A DNA stretch of 64,000 bases from an uncultured Desulfurellales bacterium (lineage in GTDB: Bacteria; Campylobacterota_A; Desulfurellia; Desulfurellales; Hippeaceae): the NCBI GenBank assembly GCA_964544085.1, contig CAZIZT010000027.1, forward strand, positions 33,676-97,675, written 5' to 3'. The position numbers and the translations under genes were made by a program. Below the pieces are notes generated by a model. That model saw nothing but the letters and a program-made list of their open reading frames with translations. It made no database searches and was not told where the DNA came from. Numbering within the stretch: position 1 is the first letter of the stretch; each line of letters begins with the position of its first letter. Of this stretch, positions 17,527 to 48,962 are shown in pieces.

Positions 17527-19500
17527 ATGCGGGTTAAAGGCATCATTGCGTTGGTTGCGGTTTCGCTCCTGTTGCTTGCGCCCTATAGTAGAGGTACAAC
17601 ACAGGAGGTGAACCTTGGTGAGGTTGTAGTGCAGGCTACTAAGTCCCAAACGAAGTTGAAGGATGTGCCTGCAACTGTGTATGTTATTACAAACAAACAG
17701 ATCAAGGAGAGCACAGACGAAAGGAACATCGGTGATGTACTCTGGAGCGTTCCGGGTGTTTTCAGCCAGGATAAGAGGCACACCGATGCAAATGTTCTCT
17801 ATTTCAGGGGGGTTACCCTGCACGATCATGTTACCTATGGTATTTTGGTGCTTATTGATGGTATTCCTATCAACAATGCTGATGGATGGGTCGATTTTGA
17901 AGGCATCGATTTCAATAATGTAAAACGCATAGAGGTCATAAAGGGGCCTGTCTCTGCCCTTTATGGGCCTGATGGTACAGTGGGTGTAATAAACATAGTC
18001 ACGAAGAACCCACCCAAAAAACTCACAATGAGAGCATCAGCATCCTATGGATCCTACAGAACATGGAAATTCACAACATCCGCAGGTAAAACATTCGGTA
18101 AGGTTGGCGTGATGCTTGATGCTATGCGCTACGGTTCAAGGGGATACAGACCGCGCAACACGAACTACGAAAGCAAGTTCTCAAGCAAAGTGACAGGCGA
18201 TTTGGGCAAACTCGGTAGATTGCTGTTCACATTTGATTATGTCAATTCCGATAAGGATATTCCGGGGCCGCTGAATGAAGCCCAGTTTCTTGCCCGTGAG
18301 ACCGTATCCACGAGAAAGTTTGCCGGTTCCAGCATGGATTTATATAGGGCGGGAATCGGATACAAGAAGGCATGGGATACAGACTCTCTCCACCTTAATC
18401 TTTATTACCATGGCAAGGTTTATGATGGTGGCTACAGTGACAGCTGGGTTGAGCACTATTATCTGAACCTGTTTGGCGCAGAAGCAAGATTTATCCAGCT
18501 GTTCAATCTGGGTTCTCTTGCTAACAAGCTGACTGTAGGAACAAGTGGATACACAGAGAGCGGTACAACGAAGATCTGGGCGAGGAATAGTGACGGAAGT
18601 AAGGGAAGGTTTTTGAGCAAGGGATACGGTCTCTACAGGGCACTGGGTTTGTACGGTCAGGATCAGATAACAATTATCAAACCACTTAAAGCAACGTTTG
18701 GTTTGAGATACGATCAGATTTATTACAAATACGAAGAGAAGTATCCGGGTTCCTCTGAGGACACAAAAACGTTGCACGCGTGGAGTCCAAAATTCGGTCT
18801 GACTTATGAGTTTGTGAAAAACCACGTTCTCTATCTGGATATAGGAAGAGGTTTTATACCTCCGACGTTACGCGAGATGTTCACATCAAGGTATGCCAAC
18901 AAGGATCTGAAACCTCAGTACCTAACCGATTATGAGACGGGCGTGAGGGGTTTAATAGCCTCTGTTTTGAGATACCAGCTTGCGGTCTACTACATGAAGT
19001 TCAAGGATCAGATCCAGTATGATCCAAACACGGATACTTACGAGAATATAGGCGACACGAAGCATAAAGGTGTTGAGCTTTCATTGAGCTATAGGATACT
19101 CAAGCACATTACATTAAGTGGTAATTACAGTTTCAATATCTCTCGCTTTGACAATGACCCGGTATACGGTAACAACTTTGTCAAAAAGGCACCAAAACAC
19201 CAGCTTGCTTTGGGAGCACTCTATTCCAACAATGGTTTCTCTTTCGGTGTTTGGCTTCGAAGGATCTGGAAATACTACATGGACAATGAAAACACCAAGT
19301 ATTACGGCGGCCACACTGTCGTAAACGCTAAGGTCTCTTACAAGGTTAAGAATTTCTTTGCGTCTCTGTATGTGAACAACCTGCTGGATAACAACTATGC
19401 CACATGGGCTACAAGATATCACTTCGGAAGAAGAACGGTCGATTATTACTATCCAGGCTGGCCAGTTAACATTATGTTTACCCTCGGTATGAAATTCTAA
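17527..19500 (+). CDS. TonB-dependent outer-membrane receptor (copy 1)
   Basis: 657 aa with a signal peptide, a plug domain (VVVQATK..., IEVIKGPVSALYG), a beta-barrel and a C-terminal aromatic residue (...TLGMKF). Confidence 0.88.
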   Translation: MRVKGIIALVAVSLLLLAPYSRGTTQEVNLGEVVVQATKSQTKLKDVPATVYVITNKQIKESTDERNIGDVLWSVPGVFSQDKRHTDANVLYFRGVTLHDHVTYGILVLIDGIPINNADGWVDFEGIDFNNVKRIEVIKGPVSALYGPDGTVGVINIVTKNPPKKLTMRASASYGSYRTWKFTTSAGKTFGKVGVMLDAMRYGSRGYRPRNTNYESKFSSKVTGDLGKLGRLLFTFDYVNSDKDIPGPLNEAQFLARETVSTRKFAGSSMDLYRAGIGYKKAWDTDSLHLNLYYHGKVYDGGYSDSWVEHYYLNLFGAEARFIQLFNLGSLANKLTVGTSGYTESGTTKIWARNSDGSKGRFLSKGYGLYRALGLYGQDQITIIKPLKATFGLRYDQIYYKYEEKYPGSSEDTKTLHAWSPKFGLTYEFVKNHVLYLDIGRGFIPPTLREMFTSRYANKDLKPQYLTDYETGVRGLIASVLRYQLAVYYMKFKDQIQYDPNTDTYENIGDTKHKGVELSLSYRILKHITLSGNYSFNISRFDNDPVYGNNFVKKAPKHQLALGALYSNNGFSFGVWLRRIWKYYMDNENTKYYGGHTVVNAKVSYKVKNFFASLYVNNLLDNNYATWATRYHFGRRTVDYYYPGWPVNIMFTLGMKF

Positions 19501-19521
19501 CAAGTTAGAGAGGAAATCTAA

Positions 19522-21510
19522 ATGGATTTGAAAAAACTTATTGTGAGCAGTGCGACGGCATGCGCACTGCTTTTGTCCTGTAGTGTTGTCTCGAAAGCGG
19601 CTCAGCCTGATGATGTGAATCTTGGTGAGGTGGTAGTGCAAGCTACCAAATCGGAAACAAAGCTTAAAGATGTACCAGCTACCGTGTATATAGTGACGGG
19701 CAAAGATATAAAACAGACCTCTGACACAAGGAATCTCGGAGATATACTCTGGGAAGTTCCGGGTATATTTGGTGAGGATAAAAGACATACGGATTCCAAT
19801 GTAATCTCATTCAGGGGTGTCACACTGCACGATTGGGTAACCTATGGCATACTTGTTCTTGTGGATGGAATACCGCTCAACGATGCAGATGGAAGAGTGG
19901 ATTTTGAGGGTATAAACCTTGATAATGTAAAACGCATCGAAGTCATAAAGGGGCCTGTATCTGCGCTTTACGGACCAAATGGCACGGTGGGTGTCATCAA
20001 TATAGTCACGAAGAATCCGCCCAAGAAACTTACTGGAAAGGCTTACGCTTCTTACGGTTCTTACAAAACGTGGAAGTTGTACACAGAGGGTGGAAAGAGC
20101 TTTAAAAATGTTGGCGTTTGGTTAAGTGCTATGAGATACGGCAGCCAGGGTTATAGACCAAGAAACTCCTATTTCGAGGATAAGCTCAGCGGTAAAGTAA
20201 CCGGCGATTTGGGCGATGCAGGCCACATAACGAGTGACTTGTACTACGGTCACGTCAGCAGAGAAACCCCTGGTCCACTGAATGAGGAGGAGTTCGAGAA
20301 CCAAGAAAGGATAGCCACAAGAGAATCTTCTTCTTCTGAGATGGATCTTTACAGACTCGGTGTGGCATACAGAAAAGCGTGGGATGCAAGTTCGATTCAT
20401 CTAAGTGCTTATTTCCATAGAAGAAAAAGGGATTCGCAATGGACCACTGGCATCACCAATGATCACATAAACACTTTTGGTAGCGAGGCAAGGTTTATCC
20501 AGAAGTACACGTTGTTTAATTTGCAGGACGCCTTTACCGTTGGGGCAAGCCTCATGACCGAGGGTGGTGTCTCCAAGTACTGGATGAGAAATAGAGATGG
20601 CAGTAAAGGCACACAAACGAGGGATGGATATTCAAGACAAACAAATTACGGTGTGTATGCGCAGAATGTATTAGCGTTGGCAAGACCCTTAAAGGTTACG
20701 CTTGGCGTGAGGTACGACAGAGTTCATTTCAAGTATGACGATAGAATCAAATCTAACGGTGACGATTCGGGCACGCGCACCATGGATGCCTGGAGTCCAA
20801 AGGTCGGCATTACGTATGAAGCATTTAAGGGTCAAACCTTTTACATCAACATAGGTAAAGGTTTCGTGCCTCCGACTCTTTACAGGCTTTTTTCCGGTAG
20901 GTATGCCAATAAGGATTTGAAGCCCCAGTATTTGACCGATTACGAGATTGGAGTAAGGGGCAATATTGCAACGAAACTTCACTATGAAATGGCTGTTTAT
21001 TACATGAAATTCAAGGATCAAATTCAATATGATCCTGTGACAGAGAGATATGAGAATATCGGTAATACAAAGCACAAAGGCTTCGAGGTATCTCTGAAGT
21101 ATAGATTCTTGAAGCACTTTATTTTGCGTGGTAATTACAGTTTCAATATCTCTCGCTTTGACAATGACCCGGTCTACGGTAACAACTTTGTCAAAAAGGC
21201 ACCCAAACACATGATGGGGCTGGGAGTTACCTACATTAACCGTGGTTTAACGTTGAGTATGTGGATGAGAAAGGTCTGGAAATACTACATGGACAATGAA
21301 AACACCAAGTATTACGGCGGATACACACTTTTGAACGCCAAGGTTTCCTATCATTGGCACAGGGTATTCGCATCCTTGTATGTGAACAACCTGCTGGACA
21401 ACAACTATGCCACATGGGCTACGAGGTACACAAGAAGAGGTAGAACAACAGACTACTATTTCCCGGGTTGGCCATTGAACGTAATGTTCACGCTGGGTAT
21501 GAAATTTTAG
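19522..21510 (+). CDS. TonB-dependent outer-membrane receptor (copy 2, tandem paralogue)
   Basis: 662 aa, same architecture as copy 1 and the same C-terminus TLGMKF. Starts 21 nt after copy 1. Confidence 0.88.
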   Translation: MDLKKLIVSSATACALLLSCSVVSKAAQPDDVNLGEVVVQATKSETKLKDVPATVYIVTGKDIKQTSDTRNLGDILWEVPGIFGEDKRHTDSNVISFRGVTLHDWVTYGILVLVDGIPLNDADGRVDFEGINLDNVKRIEVIKGPVSALYGPNGTVGVINIVTKNPPKKLTGKAYASYGSYKTWKLYTEGGKSFKNVGVWLSAMRYGSQGYRPRNSYFEDKLSGKVTGDLGDAGHITSDLYYGHVSRETPGPLNEEEFENQERIATRESSSSEMDLYRLGVAYRKAWDASSIHLSAYFHRRKRDSQWTTGITNDHINTFGSEARFIQKYTLFNLQDAFTVGASLMTEGGVSKYWMRNRDGSKGTQTRDGYSRQTNYGVYAQNVLALARPLKVTLGVRYDRVHFKYDDRIKSNGDDSGTRTMDAWSPKVGITYEAFKGQTFYINIGKGFVPPTLYRLFSGRYANKDLKPQYLTDYEIGVRGNIATKLHYEMAVYYMKFKDQIQYDPVTERYENIGNTKHKGFEVSLKYRFLKHFILRGNYSFNISRFDNDPVYGNNFVKKAPKHMMGLGVTYINRGLTLSMWMRKVWKYYMDNENTKYYGGYTLLNAKVSYHWHRVFASLYVNNLLDNNYATWATRYTRRGRTTDYYFPGWPLNVMFTLGMKF

Positions 21511-24615: not shown

Positions 24616-25413
24616 ATGGGATACTTCGTTGGTGTAGACATCGGCACCACATCTACTAAGATTGCAATCATCGACGATTCTTGCAAGCTTTTAAACCATC
24701 TTGTTGTTTTATCGGGAGCTGATTTCAAACGGTCTGCGGATGAGGCATTCGAGACACTCCTTGAGAAGACAAACGTTAAAGAAAGCGAGGTTGAATACAT
24801 TGTCTCAACGGGCTATGGACGCAAGCTCGTTGATTTTGCGGATGAGTCTATAAGCGAGATATCAGCCAACGCCAAGGGCGCAAGTACCATAGGCAGACTA
24901 AATGGTGTTTCCATCAGGACGATAATAGACATTGGAGGTCAGGATAGCAAGGTTATCTCGCTTGACGAAAACGGTAAGGTAAACAACTTTACAATGAACG
25001 ATAAATGTGCAGCAGGTACAGGTAGATTTCTTGAGTCGATGGCACGTGTTCTTGAGGTTAACATAAGCAACTTTGGAGAGTTATTGCTCCAATCCAACCA
25101 GCCCGTGAAGATTAACAGCACCTGCACCGTTTTTGCAGAAACGGAGGTTATCTCCCATCTTGCAAGGGGTCAGAGGAAGGAGGACATAGTTGCAGGGATT
25201 CACCGCTCCATAGTTCAAAGGATAATGGCACTGGGCAAACGTGTAGGCATCAGGGAGGTTGTACTTCTGAGTGGTGGACCTGCAAAGAATGAGGGCCTTG
25301 TTAAGACCATGAAAGAGATGCTGGGTATGGAGGTGTTTGTTCCTGAGCATCCGCAGGTGGTGACAGCATTTGGCGCTGCGATAATTGCAAAGGAAAGAAG
25401 TGGAGATGAGTAG
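24616..25413 (+). CDS. BcrA/BadF/HgdC-type ATPase (activase / ATP-dependent electron-transfer component)
   Basis: Start at ATG 24616 (AGGAGG RBS). Has an ASKHA-fold N-terminus (GVDIGTTSTKIAI) and the cluster-bridging cysteine contexts NDKCAAGTGRF and NSTCTVFAE typical of HgdC-like activases. Confidence 0.85.
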   Translation: MGYFVGVDIGTTSTKIAIIDDSCKLLNHLVVLSGADFKRSADEAFETLLEKTNVKESEVEYIVSTGYGRKLVDFADESISEISANAKGASTIGRLNGVSIRTIIDIGGQDSKVISLDENGKVNNFTMNDKCAAGTGRFLESMARVLEVNISNFGELLLQSNQPVKINSTCTVFAETEVISHLARGQRKEDIVAGIHRSIVQRIMALGKRVGIREVVLLSGGPAKNEGLVKTMKEMLGMEVFVPEHPQVVTAFGAAIIAKERSGDE

Positions 25414-26056
25414 TCTTTACGATGCGTTTGGCTTCTTTACGGTAGGTCTGTTTAGTGGCATTGTTTTCTGTGGATTTGGTTGCCCTGCCTTTATAGGTGT
25501 TTACGTTTCAGCGCTGAGCGAAGATGTGAAGCAAAGCTTGATCATTACTGCTCTGTTCAATCTCGGTCGGGTAGCTGTTTATCTACTGCTTGCCTTTCTC
25601 TCTGTTTATTTGGGCAGGGCTGTGGTGGAGAGTTTAGGTATTGCGCCGCATATTGTGTTGATATCGATGATGGTGGCAATTGGGCTTGTGTTGAGCTTCT
25701 CAAAACCAAAGAGCAACTGTTCAACCGGTTCTTTCTCTTCAGCCTACAGAAGGCTGCTCTCACGCTCCAAATTTTCGGCTTTATTGATAGGGGCTGTTAC
25801 TGGGTTAATACCCTGTTTACCATTTTCGGCGGTTGTGGCATATGCTGTGAATAGCTCATCGCTTGCCAATGCTATGGTTGCTGCAGCCTCTTTCGGGCTT
25901 GGTAGCTCCATAGCCTATCTGTTGGTTGTGGGGGCGCTTCTGGGACTGTTTGCAAAGAGTGTGAGTCTTCGCATTGCCAACAAGGCGATCTTTAACAGGA
26001 TTTGCGGTGTAATAATTCTACTGATAGCTTTTAAAGATATCCTTGTCCTGCTTTAA
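25406..26056 (+). CDS. CcdA/DsbD_2-like polytopic membrane protein (thiol:disulfide or metal conduit)
   Basis: About 216 aa with about 6 TM helices. Cys-Pro motifs sit in two helices (FGCPAF and LIPCLPF), as in CcdA/DsbD-type proteins. The start is ambiguous (TTG 25385 or ATG 25406). Confidence 0.5.
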   Translation: MSSLYDAFGFFTVGLFSGIVFCGFGCPAFIGVYVSALSEDVKQSLIITALFNLGRVAVYLLLAFLSVYLGRAVVESLGIAPHIVLISMMVAIGLVLSFSKPKSNCSTGSFSSAYRRLLSRSKFSALLIGAVTGLIPCLPFSAVVAYAVNSSSLANAMVAAASFGLGSSIAYLLVVGALLGLFAKSVSLRIANKAIFNRICGVIILLIAFKDILVLL

Positions 26057-26066
26057 GGAGGCGAAC

Positions 26067-27323
26067 GTGAGCAGGCTAATCTGTGTTGTTTTAATGGTCG
26101 TTATCTCATCGGTTGTTTCTGTAAATGTGTTTGCCACAACCAGAGTTGTGAAAAGGAAATATATCACGGCTTATTACAACAGCAAAGGAGAACTCACACG
26201 GGTGGATATCGATTCAAACCATAACGGCAGAATGGACACGGTTAAGTACATCAGCAAAGGTAGGGTGTATAAGGTTAAAAGGGACGCCAACGGAGATGGT
26301 CGCTTTGATACCTACATCTTTTTCGAAGACGGCAAGGTTTCAATGATAAAGAAAGACACAAACGGTGACGGTAAACTGGATACGTATATCTATTTCAGGA
26401 AAGGCCATCTCTACAAAACGGAAAAGGATACCAATCATGATGGCAGAATTGATTACGTTCTTGTTCATAAGGGTCACGGTTTAGCACTGGAAAAGATAGA
26501 TACCAACCACGATGGGAAGTTTGACACCGTGAACTTCTATAGACACAGAAGGCTCTATAAATGTGTGCAAAACGGTAAGGTTGTCCTCTACGGCAAAAAC
26601 GGCTTACCATTAAAAATAAAAGATGGCAAAGCACATTACGTCTATAAAAATGGGAGACTTAGTAAGGTGGAATTTAAATATAGAGTGATTGCCTATAAAG
26701 ATGGAAAGAAGAGTTTTGAAAAGATAGATACCAACCACGACGGGAAGTTCGATCTGTTTGTCTATTACCGCAATGGTACAGTGTATAAGGTTGAGAAGGA
26801 TACAAATTACGATGGACGTATAGATGCTGTTGAAACCATAGCCGGAAATACGAGAAAGCTAAGGGTAGATAAGAATCACAATGGCTTTTTCAATATAACA
26901 CTGACGTTTAAGAACGGAAAGCTTATACAAAAGGAGTTTTTCAAGAAGGGTTGTAGTCTGCCTTATCGAATTGAAAGCAAGACCAAGATAATGGTGGATA
27001 GTAACTGTGACGGCAAATATGAAAAGATTGAAAAGATAAGACCTGATCGCATAGATATTCTCGTTGATGCCAATCATGACGGGAAGTTTGACTGTGAGTA
27101 TGTGTATTCGCCAAAGCACAAACTTGTTGAGGTGTTGAAAGACACCAACCATGATGGAAAATTCGACACATTCATAACATACAACGGCAAAGAGTGCTAC
27201 ACTATCAGCCGGGATAGTGACTTCAACGGCATGGTGGATCTTTGGAAGAAATACAAGGATGGAAAGCTCGTCTCTGTGGAGAGGGATCTAAATGGAGACG
27301 GCAAGCCCGACATTACATACTAA
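26067..27323 (+). CDS. Secreted repeat protein with about 13 DxNxDG (EF-hand/FG-GAP-like) putative cation-binding loops
   Basis: GTG start after AAGGAGG and signal peptide VSRLICVVLMVVISSVVSVNVFA. The unit (E/K)KDTNHDGK(F/I)D-x-hYY-x-G-x-hYK repeats with a period of about 24 aa. Confidence 0.7.
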   Translation: MSRLICVVLMVVISSVVSVNVFATTRVVKRKYITAYYNSKGELTRVDIDSNHNGRMDTVKYISKGRVYKVKRDANGDGRFDTYIFFEDGKVSMIKKDTNGDGKLDTYIYFRKGHLYKTEKDTNHDGRIDYVLVHKGHGLALEKIDTNHDGKFDTVNFYRHRRLYKCVQNGKVVLYGKNGLPLKIKDGKAHYVYKNGRLSKVEFKYRVIAYKDGKKSFEKIDTNHDGKFDLFVYYRNGTVYKVEKDTNYDGRIDAVETIAGNTRKLRVDKNHNGFFNITLTFKNGKLIQKEFFKKGCSLPYRIESKTKIMVDSNCDGKYEKIEKIRPDRIDILVDANHDGKFDCEYVYSPKHKLVEVLKDTNHDGKFDTFITYNGKECYTISRDSDFNGMVDLWKKYKDGKLVSVERDLNGDGKPDITY

Positions 27324-27345: not shown

Positions 27346-27987
27346 ATGTGGGATCTTATACAGAAATCTGGCGTCTTTGGTTACCTTATTATTGTCTGCT
27401 CGGTTTTTTCTGTTGCAATCATACTGGAGCGTTACTTTGCATTTAGAAGGATAAAACTGAAGGATCCGGATTTTATCATTCGTATAGTTGAAGCGCTCAA
27501 CAAAGGTGAAATAGAAAAACTGCTCCCGGAATTGGAGAGGTCAAAGTCTCCTGTTGTGAGGATAGTTTATGAAATTATAACAAGGCATGTAAGCTCGGGC
27601 AATGGCAGGGAATCAAAAGAAGCAGTGGAGAGGACAATACACTTCATTGCTGAAAGAGAAGTGAGAGAGATGGAGAAATACCTACCGTCTCTTGCATCCA
27701 TTGCGCAGGTTTCTCCCTTGCTTGGTCTGCTTGGTACGGTGGTTGGAATGATCAAGGCTTTCATGGTTATCCAGTCCTATGGCGGTAGGGTCAATGCGCA
27801 GGTACTCGCAGGGGGTATCTGGGAAGCTATGCTCACAACAGCAATGGGCCTGATAGTTGCTATTCCCTCTATGCTTGCCTACAACTACTTCAATGCACGA
27901 ATAAACAAAACAATAGGTTTAATGGATGAGATAAGCAACGAACTTATCCATGCGCTGGAGAAGGCAAACTACTTCAAGGAGAGCTGA
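27346..27987 (+). CDS. exbB: MotA/TolQ/ExbB proton-channel protein
   Basis: 213 aa with 3 TM helices and a conserved C-terminal channel region (LGLLGTVVGMI...GGIWEAMLTTA). Followed by exbD and tonB. Confidence 0.88.
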   Translation: MWDLIQKSGVFGYLIIVCSVFSVAIILERYFAFRRIKLKDPDFIIRIVEALNKGEIEKLLPELERSKSPVVRIVYEIITRHVSSGNGRESKEAVERTIHFIAEREVREMEKYLPSLASIAQVSPLLGLLGTVVGMIKAFMVIQSYGGRVNAQVLAGGIWEAMLTTAMGLIVAIPSMLAYNYFNARINKTIGLMDEISNELIHALEKANYFKES

Positions 27988-27989
27988 TC

Positions 27990-28400
27990 ATGATTAACAT
28001 AAAAAGAAGGGCAACCTCCAGCGAAGGCGCCAATATCAATCTCACGCCATTGATAGATATTGTTTTTCTGCTGCTTATATTCTTTATGTTGACGGCAAAT
28101 TTTGTCGTCAATGAGGGAATAAAAATAAAGTTACCCGAGACCAAAGCTCGTTCAGAGTTAGCGAAGAAGCCTATTGTTGTGTATTTGACAAAGGACAACA
28201 GAATATACTTCAAGGGAAGGTTCGTCACGTTGGACCAATTGAAGACTCTTTTACCCCAACAGATAGCTGAGAATGTGACAAAAACGGTTGTTCTTAAGTC
28301 TGATAAGAACGCTAAGGTTGATATAGCTGTGAAGATCCTCGATGTAGCCAAACTATCAGGCGCAAAGAAGTTTATAATCGCCACCCGGAAAGAGGAATGA
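27990..28400 (+). CDS. exbD: Biopolymer transport protein ExbD/TolR
   Basis: 136 aa. N-terminal INLTPLIDIVFLLLIFFM is the ExbD/TolR signature helix. Confidence 0.88.
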   Translation: MINIKRRATSSEGANINLTPLIDIVFLLLIFFMLTANFVVNEGIKIKLPETKARSELAKKPIVVYLTKDNRIYFKGRFVTLDQLKTLLPQQIAENVTKTVVLKSDKNAKVDIAVKILDVAKLSGAKKFIIATRKEE

Positions 28401-29119
28401 GTACATCAGAAAAGAGATTCCTGCTCATTCTTTTCTTTTCAATTGTTTTACATGCGGGCATACTGGTGGTTTTCAGTTTATCGTTTCAGAAGCCCGACGA
28501 GAATGAGAACAGGGTAGAGATCAATCTGAATAACTACCAGTTGCCCCGTGATACACCCATAGAACAGCCTGTGGAACCGGAGAAGATGACGCGATTAAAT
28601 TTTAACCAGATAGAGATACCTAAAGACAATGTTCAACCTGAAAAGATAAAACGTGTAAAGAGGATCCTGAAGGAGCGTGTGACCGATTACAGCGAATTGG
28701 CGAAATTGCCTGAAAATATCCCACAAAACTATCCCTTGCCGCAGCCGGTGGTGACACATAAGCCAGCAAAAAAGCCTCTACGACACCCTGCACCAGCAGT
28801 TGCTGGAAATCCGCATTTGCTTTCTATATACTTGCGAAGGGTTAGAGGTATCATCGAGTCTCACAAGATGTACCCTCTCTCTGCGAAAGAGAATGGGGTG
28901 GAAGGTAAGGTGCTTTTGGAGTTCACTCTGCTTAGGAACGGAAATATTGCATCGTTGAGAATACTTCGCTCATCTGGTTCGGATGCACTCGATAGGGCAG
29001 CTAAACGAGCTATACTTGATTCTGTTCCCTTTCCACCGTTTCCTGCCGGGGTAAAGCGCAAAAGGTTGCATGTGAAGCTTTACATAGTATTTAAACTCGA
29101 AGAAGAAGACGAATGGTGA
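28397..29119 (+). CDS. tonB: Energy transducer TonB
   Basis: 240 aa with an N-terminal anchor, a Pro-rich spacer (PQPVVTHKPAKKPLRHPAP) and a C-terminal TonB domain (YPLSAKENGVEGKVLLEFTL...). Confidence 0.85.
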   Translation: MSTSEKRFLLILFFSIVLHAGILVVFSLSFQKPDENENRVEINLNNYQLPRDTPIEQPVEPEKMTRLNFNQIEIPKDNVQPEKIKRVKRILKERVTDYSELAKLPENIPQNYPLPQPVVTHKPAKKPLRHPAPAVAGNPHLLSIYLRRVRGIIESHKMYPLSAKENGVEGKVLLEFTLLRNGNIASLRILRSSGSDALDRAAKRAILDSVPFPPFPAGVKRKRLHVKLYIVFKLEEEDEW

Positions 29120-34600: not shown

Positions 34601-34673
34601 TCTGATACTGGTGCCTGGTTTGTATCTCATAGTTGAGGATATCGCGAACCTGTTTGGGTTCACGACAAAATAA
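31599..34673 (+). CDS. RND efflux transporter permease
   Basis: 1024 aa RND architecture with the TM4 motif GIVVDDAIVVGENI. Overlaps the adaptor gene by 32 nt. Confidence 0.9.
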   Translation: MTRIIKFFIDNPVAANILMIFLLVGGFYYSYHIKQEVFPEYTIDEVVVQVSYPGATPKEIENGIILPIEEAIDGLEGIDKVISTAREGVGTVTIEAVNGADINQLYNDVKNAVDRITTFPADAEKPTIYIPTRKRAVITMILYGDVPYYQLMGLAQQYKDRLLNFKNITNVELSGNKPYQITISVSENALKKYSLTFSDIARKIRDFDTELGGGRIRTRGGDILIKTGTRKEYGSQLANIPIITTSGGGVVKLKDIAKIDDGFEDTDTYLKYNGKRAIGITVYRVGDQKPVEIADTVKAFIARIRDELPPGIGVDYVSDYSRIFKQRKELLLKNAKFGLVLVLILLALFLELRLAFWVMLGIPVSFLGSMLIFPMFGVTINMISMFAFIICLGIVVDDAIVVGENIYSYREKGLSFKEAALVGTREVFVPVVFSVLTNMVAFLPMYFVPGTAGKIFRIIPVIVCSVFTISLLESLFILPSHIAHQRENPILPIRAINRVQGKISKIIHRLINLLYTPVLKLALRFRYVVFVLAAVILYLAFVFVETGKIGIVYFPRIERSHATVRFQLPPESSVYDTLKIADMLVQRAKRIIKEHGGSKLAQGILTRIDGNSGDIRVYLTPPGVRPISTSQFTRLWRRASRGIPGLEKIRFSADFGGPGAGASLTIELSHRNTAVLTQACKQLANYLKTFKNVSDIDDGTSAGKYQFTLTLNSLGRALGLDPSYIATQLRGAYYGIEAKKFIRQGNEVKIKVTLPEQQRSLVYYFDHFMLTLPDGTRIPLKEVVNVEKGRSYVTITREDFRRVMYVTANVTPERDTRKIVENLMRDFLPKLKQHYPGLSYSFGGRQSRLKESMSVLTKGLLVSVLVIFTMLAIPFKSYIQPIIIMTAIPFGIIGAIIGHVIMGYDISIVSMFGIVALCGVVINDSLVLIDFANRIRRTLNKSHYEAVFEAGIKRFRPIILTTLTTFFGLMPMIFEPSTQARFLVPMAISLGFGILFSTFIILILVPGLYLIVEDIANLFGFTTK

Positions 34674-47771: not shown

Positions 47772-47888
47772 GAGTGAGTTAATTCTCCGAGCTTTTAAAC
47801 CTAAGGCTTCCTTTGATGGGAGCTATGGTTTTTAAGCCGATAGGGTGAGTGTGGAAACGCATTCGCCTCCCGTGCTTGGAAAGGAGAA
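47772..47888 (+). promoter_or_regulatory. Molybdenum/tungsten-cofactor (Moco, moaA-motif) riboswitch candidate
   Basis: Contains CTCCGAGC near the 5' end and a stem AGCTTT/AAGGCT. The 3' segment TTCGCCTCCCGTGCTTGGAAAGGAG closely resembles the E. coli moaA leader (...CUUCGCCUCCCGUAUCUGGAAAGG...). The RBS is embedded in the 3' arm, and a Mo/W transporter lies directly downstream. Confidence 0.72.
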
Positions 47889-47891
47889 GTT

Positions 47892-48962
47892 GTGATTTCT
47901 CTTTCTATTCGTAAGCGGCTTGGCGCTTTTCAGCTTGATGCCTCCTTTGAGCTTTCCACCAATCGCTGTGTGATATTCGGACCTTCCGGTAGTGGAAAAT
48001 CATCTCTACTAAAAATGATAGCTGGGTTTTTTGATCCGGATGAGGGCAGGATCATCATAAATGGCAAATGTTATTTCGATAGCAAACGGTCTATCTCCCT
48101 GGCTATTCAGAAACGTAATGTGGGTTATCTTCCTCAAGAGTATACGCTATTTCCGCATATGAAGGTCAGGCAGAATATTGAGTATGGTTTAAAGAAGCGA
48201 AAGATACGGGAATTTCTGCCGGTTGAGGATCTGGTGAAGAGGTTTGGTATAGACGATTGTATGGACAGATACCCTTCAGAACTCTCAGGCGGACAGCGTC
48301 AGAGAGCTGCACTGGTAAGGGCTCTTGTTGTTAAACCCGATCTACTTCTGCTGGATGAGCCCTTCAGTGCCCTTGATAAGCCGATAAGGGAGGAGTTGAG
48401 AACGCTGGTTGCCGACGTATCCGAAACATTCGATATACCGGTACTGTTTGTTACTCATGATCCGGATGAGGCGTTTGTATTTGCAGATCAGATGGTGATA
48501 ATAAAAGACGGCATCGTGCTTGAATGCGATTATAAAGAGAGGGTCTTCAATGCGCCCCGTTTTGTTGAAACTGCACTCCTCTTCAATTTTTTCAATATCT
48601 GGCATGTCAAAGAGGCGACAAATGGATCTGTTAAGCTAAGGAATGGCTATGTGCTTAAAACCAATGCTGCTTCCTGCGATTATGTCTCAGTGAAACCGGA
48701 GAATGTAATGATACTTAGACCTGACGCAGATTTCAGGCAGAAGGAGAACGTGATAAGTGTTGTTGTGGAGAGACTAACGTGGCATAACCGATATGTCTCT
48801 GTTTCGACCAGAACAGATGATGGTATGAAAATCAGAATCAATGTCCCTGAACATGTGATAGGCAAGATGCGTATAGAAGAGGGTGTAAGGCTGAGGGTGT
48901 CCCTGGATAGAGGCTCCTTAATCCCGCTTAAAGTGCACAGGAATGTGCATGTTAATTCGTGA
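47892..48962 (+). CDS. modC: Molybdate/tungstate ABC transporter ATP-binding protein with a C-terminal TOBE-like domain
   Basis: 356 aa with a GTG start after AAGGAG. Has Walker A GPSGSGKSS, signature LSGGQRQR, Walker B LLLLDEP and a C-terminal extension of about 120 aa. Confidence 0.75.
   Translation: MISLSIRKRLGAFQLDASFELSTNRCVIFGPSGSGKSSLLKMIAGFFDPDEGRIIINGKCYFDSKRSISLAIQKRNVGYLPQEYTLFPHMKVRQNIEYGLKKRKIREFLPVEDLVKRFGIDDCMDRYPSELSGGQRQRAALVRALVVKPDLLLLDEPFSALDKPIREELRTLVADVSETFDIPVLFVTHDPDEAFVFADQMVIIKDGIVLECDYKERVFNAPRFVETALLFNFFNIWHVKEATNGSVKLRNGYVLKTNAASCDYVSVKPENVMILRPDADFRQKENVISVVVERLTWHNRYVSVSTRTDDGMKIRINVPEHVIGKMRIEEGVRLRVSLDRGSLIPLKVHRNVHVNS

Follow-up and report, generated by a model that had tools for sequence, protein, structure and literature searches.

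The DNA analysed here is a stretch of 64,000 nucleotides (the window; contig CAZIZT010000027.1, positions 33,676 to 97,675) from an uncultured Desulfurellales bacterium. It raises the question of why a gene for an exported protein with many acidic loop repeats stands directly in front of the Ton genes exbB, exbD and tonB. The coding sequence of this repeat protein, called X below, occupies 26067-27323 on the plus strand and specifies 418 amino acids plus the stop. The linkage of X to exbB/exbD/tonB is tight, specific and widespread. X is most likely a new periplasmic accessory, with which the Ton system would have a fourth, structurally novel partner, and its mechanism is one that we infer.

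Eight homologues with full-length similarity to X were viewed in their own contigs in the metagenomic context set. Five of them (P0002, P0003, P0011, P0037 and P0040) show the order X-exbB-exbD-tonB, and P0010 shows tonB-X-exbB-exbD. In P0018 (L004:7712-9272, Desulfobacter sp. CP054838.1), a pair of IS630-family transposase genes lies between X and exbB, and exbB appears to be split into two open-reading frames; this operon is probably inactivated. With this interrupted locus counted, Ton genes stand beside the X homologue in seven of the eight contexts. The eighth homologue, P0026 (399 amino acids, without the C-terminal module), adjoins lgt and not exbB. Taken as controls together with three short DxDxDG proteins that match X only partially (P0043, P0058 and P0072), it completes a group in which none of the four has Ton neighbours.

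A species sample of 80 loci, with one genome per species, was drawn by the C-terminal signature DGKPDLWE and a seven-sequence C-terminal alignment that excluded X; it samples the Desulfobacterales branch, not X's own. Almost all of the loci belong to Desulfobacterales (Desulfosarcina variabilis, D. widdelii, Desulfobacula, Desulfotignum, SEEP-SRB2 and others), and two belong to Myxococcota. Open-reading frames in the loci were labelled by jackhmmer, and 73 of the 80 loci have at least 800 nucleotides downstream of X. In 65 of these 73 (89%), exbB starts within 600 nucleotides downstream of X, with a median gap of 37 nucleotides; either exbB or tonB lies within that distance in 67 loci, and exbB is found anywhere downstream in the locus in 68. 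In each of three complete Desulfobacterales genomes there are 5-13 MotA/ExbB paralogues but exactly one full-length X, immediately in front of one exbB. Around the module, receptor and cargo genes vary between loci (Peripla_BP_2/FecCD, SBP_bac_5, Metallophos, RND pump), whereas X-exbB-exbD-tonB is constant; X is therefore associated with the unit that supplies the energy rather than with any one substrate. A preliminary description of the window had offered, as one of three ideas, that X is a scaffold linked to the TonB machinery, and this idea fits the linkage in both samples (65 of 73 species loci and seven of eight metagenomic contexts). It had also named, as a refuting observation, that homologues never co-occur with TonB systems; given the co-occurrence in both samples, this refutation fails.

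Some related arrangements were seen beside these. In Desulfosarcina variabilis, a 167-amino-acid X-like fragment (C1:5302153-5302560) lies directly upstream of a second exbB (5301546-5301908). In two SEEP-SRB2-type loci (L047:5241-7004 and L052:5241-6896), X is followed, in place of exbB-exbD, by a fusion of 550-590 amino acids with an AAA_22 ATPase domain at its N-terminus and TonB_C at its C-terminus, and then by a TonB-dependent receptor; the fusion could be an ATP-linked TonB variant resembling ExeA/GspA.

The host is a Hippea-like bacterium with a genome of 1.73 Mb: its LigA shares about 76% identity with those of Hippea alviniae, H. maritima and Hippea sp. KM1, and 58% with that of Desulfurella. 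The host genome contains only one other MotA-family pair, which is part of a complete Tol-Pal operon, and thus the ExbBD beside X is the genome's sole Ton motor. A paralogue, X2 (394 amino acids with 14 canonical loops; identity to X 36-38%, E = 6e-67), is encoded on another contig of the same genome, outside the window (C17:78624-89178), in a module of a 350-amino-acid TonB, X2, a TonB-dependent receptor, TetR and an OMF-MFP-RND pump. The order of this module mirrors that of the window, where an OMF-MFP-RND pump also follows X-exbB-exbD-tonB. No close orthologue of the window ExbB was found in the other 36 genomes of the phylum; the best matches there, with E values from 1e-11 to 1e-18, are about as strong as that of the host's own TolQ (1.2e-14). 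Among the relatives in the phylum, only three, all of the host's family, have short X-like genes, each directly after tonB; one genome of another phylum shows this arrangement too. The window ExbB and ExbD share 43-47% identity with their X-linked counterparts in Desulfobacterales. These sequence comparisons suggest that the X-ExbBD-TonB module may have been laterally acquired.

X appears to be exported. GTG at 26067 is the likely start codon, and is preferred to the TTG at 26043 of a longer frame (26043-27323, 426 amino acids), because it lies 5 nucleotides past GGAGG (26058-26062) and 10 nucleotides beyond the stop of the upstream DsbD_2 gene, and because the closest homologue, P0002, a 53% identical orthologue, also has 418 amino acids. 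The N-terminus reads MSR, followed by a hydrophobic core of 17 residues and an A-x-A-type site, VFA/TT, and by hydrophobicity it looks like a Sec signal peptide (residues 1-23). Inspection of the X sequence found no lipobox and no hydrophobic segment past the signal peptide, and the same layout is common to almost all of the 40 homologues, which agrees with the early view of X as an exported protein with a signal peptide. A lipoprotein was ruled out by the missing lipobox, and a membrane anchor by the A-x-A-type cleavage site, which is kept in relatives. A hemophore-like secreted binder was also rejected: the signal is of the Sec type rather than that of type I secretion, and the RND pump adjoins X in this genome alone.

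The mature protein is a regular array. The pattern D.[ND].[ND]G occurs 13 times in X, at residues 49, 73, 97, 121, 145, 221, 245, 268, 311, 334, 359, 383 and 407 (spacings 24, 24, 24, 24, 76, 24, 23, 43, 23, 25, 24 and 24), whereas 20,000 shuffles of X gave a mean of 0.09 and a maximum of three. The initial count of about 13 DxNxDG loop units of about 24 amino acids was therefore accurate; its list of loops was correct overall, except that DTNHDG occurs four times, not five. Judged against the motif (Asp or Asn at positions 1, 3 and 5, then Gly at 6, and an acidic position 9), positions 1, 3, 5 and 6 of the calcium-loop pattern DxDxDGxxD fit in all 13 loops, and position 9 is Asp or Glu in 12 of them. 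A set of 519 regex-selected loops from relatives agrees with the DxDxDG motif. The loops of X thus match the pattern of calcium loops and would presumably hold calcium. At two larger gaps in the array (residues 169-220 and 292-310), the hairpins have short NG/DG turns instead of the long loop; X2 still has loops where residues 169-220 of X align.

The repeat is visible in the DNA as well, as had been noticed at the outset: bases 26490-26524 and 26718-26752 are 94% identical over 35 nucleotides, and four further copies of the repeat unit are 63-71% identical. Tandem Repeats Finder reports no array in the X DNA, because the units are too diverged at this level. Near-identical internal units occur in both paralogues, namely EKIDTNHDGKFD in X (26490-26524 / 26718-26752) and DSNHDGKMDTFNYYRDGRL in X2 (residues 78-98 / 127-147), and therefore the arrays are still being remodelled by intragenic duplication or conversion.

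AlphaFold2, run on X with an alignment of 40 homologues, gave a model with a mean pLDDT of 92.3 and a pTM of 0.65. In it, an N-terminal signal-peptide helix is followed by 35 strands in about 17 hairpins, with no other helix, and the canonical unit runs from a nine-residue loop into a strand, then through a tight turn into a second strand. A single-sequence model of X2 was poor (pLDDT 61.5) and shows no more than the hairpin pattern again. In a Foldseek search of the Protein Data Bank, the top matches were Rhs/YD shells, teneurins, Tc toxin shells and the single-layer sheet of OspA, at high probability but with TM scores of 0.13-0.28, and propeller proteins came at lower probability only; no global fold match to X was found among the solved structures (TM against the query at most 0.28). 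The local architecture of X is thus modelled as a beta-hairpin repeat sheet, with a predicted global shape that has no solved counterpart. An Rhs/YD cocoon was ruled out, as X has too few strands for one, lacks toxin and plug domains and is not matched by the Pfam model. The preliminary description had expected a solenoid or a propeller; the propeller is not borne out, since X is predicted to be an open all-beta hairpin meander, neither a propeller nor an EF-hand (helix-loop-helix) protein. Simple arithmetic on the model (35 strands x 4.8 Å) would give a ribbon of up to about 17 nm.

X reaches the threshold of no functionally informative family. Most of the X family matches the Pfam model DUF6802 (PF20615; 25 of 40 homologues at E <= 0.001, and X2 with 35.2 bits), the function of which is itself not known; X scores 25.4-25.5 bits in four stretches, below the gathering cut-off of 27. 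GEVED (PF20009) matches X with 29.8-30.2 bits over residues 220-284 (cut-off 24.4), but it does so in X only among the 40 members, and the stretch consists of two ordinary repeat units; this match is probably loop-driven. FG-GAP_3 (18.3 vs 26.9 bits) and FG-GAP (13 vs 22.1 bits) remain below gathering and lie at the C-terminus. An acidic position 9 together with DxDxDG is the form of the integrin-type hairpin loops. The calcium loops of the integrin-type FG-GAP/VCBS repeats resemble those of X in this D-x-D/N-x-D/N-G-x-x-D pattern connecting hairpins; however, FG-GAP/VCBS propellers have four-stranded blades, whereas X is a predicted open meander with scores below gathering. MORN-variant/YwqK and YD/Rhs (PF05593) repeats are also like X in having 22-24 residues, one hairpin each and a Y-x-x-G-x-L core, but they lack its nine-residue DxDxDGxxD loop between hairpins, give TM scores of 0.13-0.28, so that the overall shape differs, and neither Pfam model matches X. 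For MORN_2/YwqK (PF07661, COG2849; cut-off 29.6 bits), X has no Pfam match at E <= 10, X2 scores 19.4 bits and two of the 40 homologues match, although several X homologues are named 'YwqK' in the JGI annotation. An EF-hand or lanmodulin identity is not supported, because EF-hand_5 (12 vs 25.9 bits) and lanmodulin (8.1 vs 135 bits) score below their cut-offs and the model of X, with no helices beyond the signal peptide, does not have the helix-loop-helix around a 12-residue loop that defines the EF-hand. In the library searched, no paper on the X family or DUF6802 was found, and a recent survey of periplasmic force transducers (PMC12204202) makes no mention of the family. With no informative Pfam or NCBIfam threshold reached and no paper found, the early judgement that X cannot be placed in a named family still holds. 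Given its place beside the Ton genes in about 90% of the species checked, X is probably an undescribed helper of the Ton uptake machine.

Conservation is concentrated at the two ends of the protein. Among 100 family members, the first unit after the signal peptide has the motif [EK][KR]x[VI][EK][RK]-D-T-D/N-x-D-G-K-I-D, with an information content clearly above that of the internal units; X retains the strand of this unit (RVVKRK) and has lost its first loop. The last ~68 residues, with the D..W..Y signature, are the best conserved part and hold 11 of the 19 nearly invariant columns of the family alignment. The middle repeats are highly variable, and the lengths of the family range from about 270 to 630 amino acids.

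It is quite probable that X is functionally tied to the Ton system, and we lean, though not firmly, towards a soluble, periplasmic, lineage-specific accessory partner of ExbB-ExbD-TonB that is neither substrate-specific nor involved in handling transition metals. How such a partner would act can be proposed only tentatively. The conserved ends, the variable repeat spacer, the periplasmic export and the strict linkage to the motor genes lead us to a possible mechanism as a calcium-stiffened adaptor or brace, in which calcium occupancy, physical partners and the role as a strut are all things that we infer. Calcium bound after export would stiffen the ribbon into a strut or adaptor, with the mature N-terminal strand and the C-terminal module of ~68 residues as its contact ends; between them the middle repeats, which vary in number, would act as a spacer. 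One end might contact periplasmic parts of TonB and/or ExbD and the other the wall or outer-membrane side, either at peptidoglycan or on a receptor's periplasmic face, and X would thereby help to assemble, position or hold the motor-TonB complex. A bolder form of this proposal, which we consider doubtful, makes X a fourth subunit in the full structural sense, within a separate class of Ton systems: a calcium-stiffened beta-ribbon of up to roughly 15-20 nm that would extend across much of the periplasm, the N-terminal strand of which would pair with TonB or ExbD as the TonB box does, while the C-terminal module would sit on the wall or receptors, so that X would serve as a fixed periplasmic track or stator brace for force transduction.

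Several points weigh against the accessory-partner reading and its mechanism. The functional evidence for X is gene neighbourhood only. The 80 loci were selected by a motif and come almost entirely from one order, and the linkage could in part reflect shared ancestry of one operon, an objection weakened by the tonB-X arrangement in other lineages. X is missing from cultured Hippea genomes and from most Ton systems, and therefore Ton function in general does not require it. A strict molecular ruler is hard to reconcile with so variable a number of repeats, and a pTM of 0.65 leaves the global arrangement, and hence the shape and length of the ribbon, uncertain. So many acidic loops could also bind cations as cargo instead.

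The last of these points leads to the main alternative, namely that X is a periplasmic store, buffer or hand-over protein, for hard cations (Ca2+, Mn2+, Fe3+ or lanthanides) coming from TonB-dependent receptors, comparable to lanmodulin, which acts together with a lanthanide receptor. X has 13 loops of the DxDxDG type, its gene array includes two such receptors, and a sequence search of the Protein Data Bank with X returned loop-level matches only, to the EF-loops of lanmodulin (E = 3e-4) and of GCAP2 (guanylate-cyclase-activating protein). We nevertheless regard this as unlikely, as X travels with exbB-exbD-tonB while receptors and cargo genes vary and dedicated binding proteins are present alongside, such loops are usually structural sites, and the match to lanmodulin, a helical protein whereas X is predicted to be all-beta, is confined to the loop (8.1 bits against the 135 required).

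The histidines in the loops suggest a second alternative, less likely than the first, in which X would be a buffer or chaperone of Ni, Co, Zn or Fe that serves the adjacent metal/thiol membrane protein as well as the uptake system. His occupies position 4 in seven of 13 loops in X, five of 14 in X2 and four of 13 in P0002. In 519 loops of the 38 other relatives, that position is Gly in 30%, Phe in 14%, His in 10% and Ala in 10%, and the enrichment in the X lineage is real (binomial P about 1e-4 against the 10% family rate); among the other products of the X operon are DUF4198, DsbD_2 and a reductase module of the double-cubane type. In DxDxDG loops, however, the ion is bound by positions 1, 3, 5 and 9 and a backbone carbonyl, and position 4 is no ligand. 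Even the 53% identical orthologue P0002 keeps His at only three of the seven His-bearing positions of X, and the identical His-bearing units in X and X2 are recent intragenic duplicates. A dedicated Ni/Co/Zn/Fe site therefore has no support, since the histidines are unconserved, were in part multiplied by recent duplication and stand at a non-ligand position; weak binding might still occur. The neighbouring metal/thiol membrane protein, read at first as a hint to function, is no better guide, as DsbD_2 adjoins X in this lineage only (it lies next to X in the P0002 contig, L001, and in none of the other contexts). The label of transition-metal chaperone is tempting but very unlikely and unsupported, and the analysis removes it from the annotation of X.

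Least probable of all is a general envelope or surface repeat protein that merely shares an operon with Ton genes and is adhesin-like, as claimed for Lsa25.6 of Leptospira. In its favour, the Lsa25.6 model (NF050087) is the best NCBIfam match to X (E = 4.8e-16), the X repeat occurs elsewhere in fusions with HEAT repeats, with a GH43 glycosidase and with a GDSL lipase, and many short DxDxDG proteins occur in unrelated contexts. Against it, the match reaches 58.9 bits over five stretches where the cut-off is 150, and the genome search with this model found no stretch at or above the cut-off. Chance would also hardly account for immediate adjacency to exbB in 89% of 73 species, for X2 beside another tonB, or for genomes that have 5-13 motor paralogues and exactly one X, placed beside one of them. 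The adhesin label of Lsa25.6 itself rests on in-vitro binding by the recombinant protein (PMC7662565).

As an accessory partner of the Ton motor, X has its nearest functional precedent in TtpB, TtpC and TtpD of the Vibrio TonB2 system, which are encoded by extra genes in the exbB-exbD-tonB cluster in a subset of Ton systems and are needed besides the three core proteins (PMC6957404). X likewise is encoded in or beside exbB-exbD-tonB across species (65 of 73 loci, seven of eight contexts) and belongs to only some Ton systems. There is no sequence or fold relationship between them, and no DUF3450, MotA-type or TPR match from Pfam was found in X; unlike TtpB/C/D, X is predicted to be a soluble repeat protein, all-beta and with loops of the calcium type, and it is known here from sequence and gene context. 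TolB and CpoB of the Tol-Pal system offer a second comparison, being soluble periplasmic partners encoded, as X is, beside a MotA-family motor and a TonB-like transducer. TolB binds TolA through a short N-terminal strand. X also has a conserved strand at its mature N-terminus, and an interaction of X with TonB is hypothetical. However, TolB and CpoB have no homology to X, and the host has its separate, complete Tol-Pal operon.

The features of X and its neighbours in the window are listed in the table. Rfam found no riboswitch near the operon, and scans for promoters and terminators at the X operon were no better than shuffles. The RND pump that follows the Ton genes ends at 34673. In the P0002 contig (L001:9826-10078), ThiC and a BirA-like gene come directly after the RND pump, whereas in the window about 27 kb (34674-61692) lie between the pump and ThiC (61693); this stretch includes a cluster of the peptide-aldehyde type and a Moco riboswitch at 47773-47902.

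Table. Features of the X gene and of the neighbouring genes (positions in the window).
Feature	Position	Strand	Basis
Two TonB-dependent receptors heading the same co-directional array	17527..21510	+	Pfam Plug + barrel for 19522-21510; phmmer paralogue 17527-19500
DsbD_2 membrane protein upstream of X	25385..26056	+	Pfam
Shine-Dalgarno GGAGG	26058..26062	+	sequence reading
X coding sequence	26067..27323	+	frame, Shine-Dalgarno, length of P0002
Predicted signal peptide, residues 1-23, VFA/TT	26067..26135	+	hydrophobicity + A-x-A-type site; AlphaFold2 helix 3-16, low confidence
Mature N-terminal strand RVVKRK and first hairpins, first loop degenerated	26136..26210	+	strands 26-30, 33-37, 43-48 (AlphaFold2)
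Block 1, five regular 24-aa units: DSNHNGRMD, DANGDGRFD, DTNGDGKLD, DTNHDGRID, DTNHDGKFD	26211..26570	+	loop scan, model
Beta-meander without long loops, residues 169-220, NG/DG turns	26571..26726	+	model strands 171-220; X2 alignment
Block 2, three units: DTNHDGKFD, DTNYDGRID, DKNHNGFFN	26727..26939	+	loop scan, model, DNA copy 26718-26752
One degenerate hairpin, then units DSNCDGKYE, DANHDGKFD	26940..27119	+	loop scan, model
C-terminal module, residues 352-418, loops DTNHDGKFD, DSDFNGMVD, DLNGDGKPD, D..W..Y signature	27120..27320	+	alignments
exbB (MotA_ExbB)	27346..27987	+	Pfam E 3.4e-32; 22 nt past X stop
exbD	27990..28400	+	Pfam E 5.1e-34
tonB (TonB_C; membrane helix with S-x-x-x-H)	28397..29119	+	Pfam E 1.4e-16

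How the force of ExbB-ExbD passes through TonB to the outer-membrane receptors is still debated, and the known machine consists of three parts, to which Vibrio adds its own extras. More than 70 species of marine sulfate reducers, and this vent bacterium, have a fourth gene in their Ton operons that is conserved and unrelated to these, which suggests a periplasmic component absent from the model organisms. If X braces or positions the motor, it would offer a new handle on the geometry of force transduction, and would explain a large group of proteins that are now 'hypothetical' or mis-named ('YwqK antitoxin').

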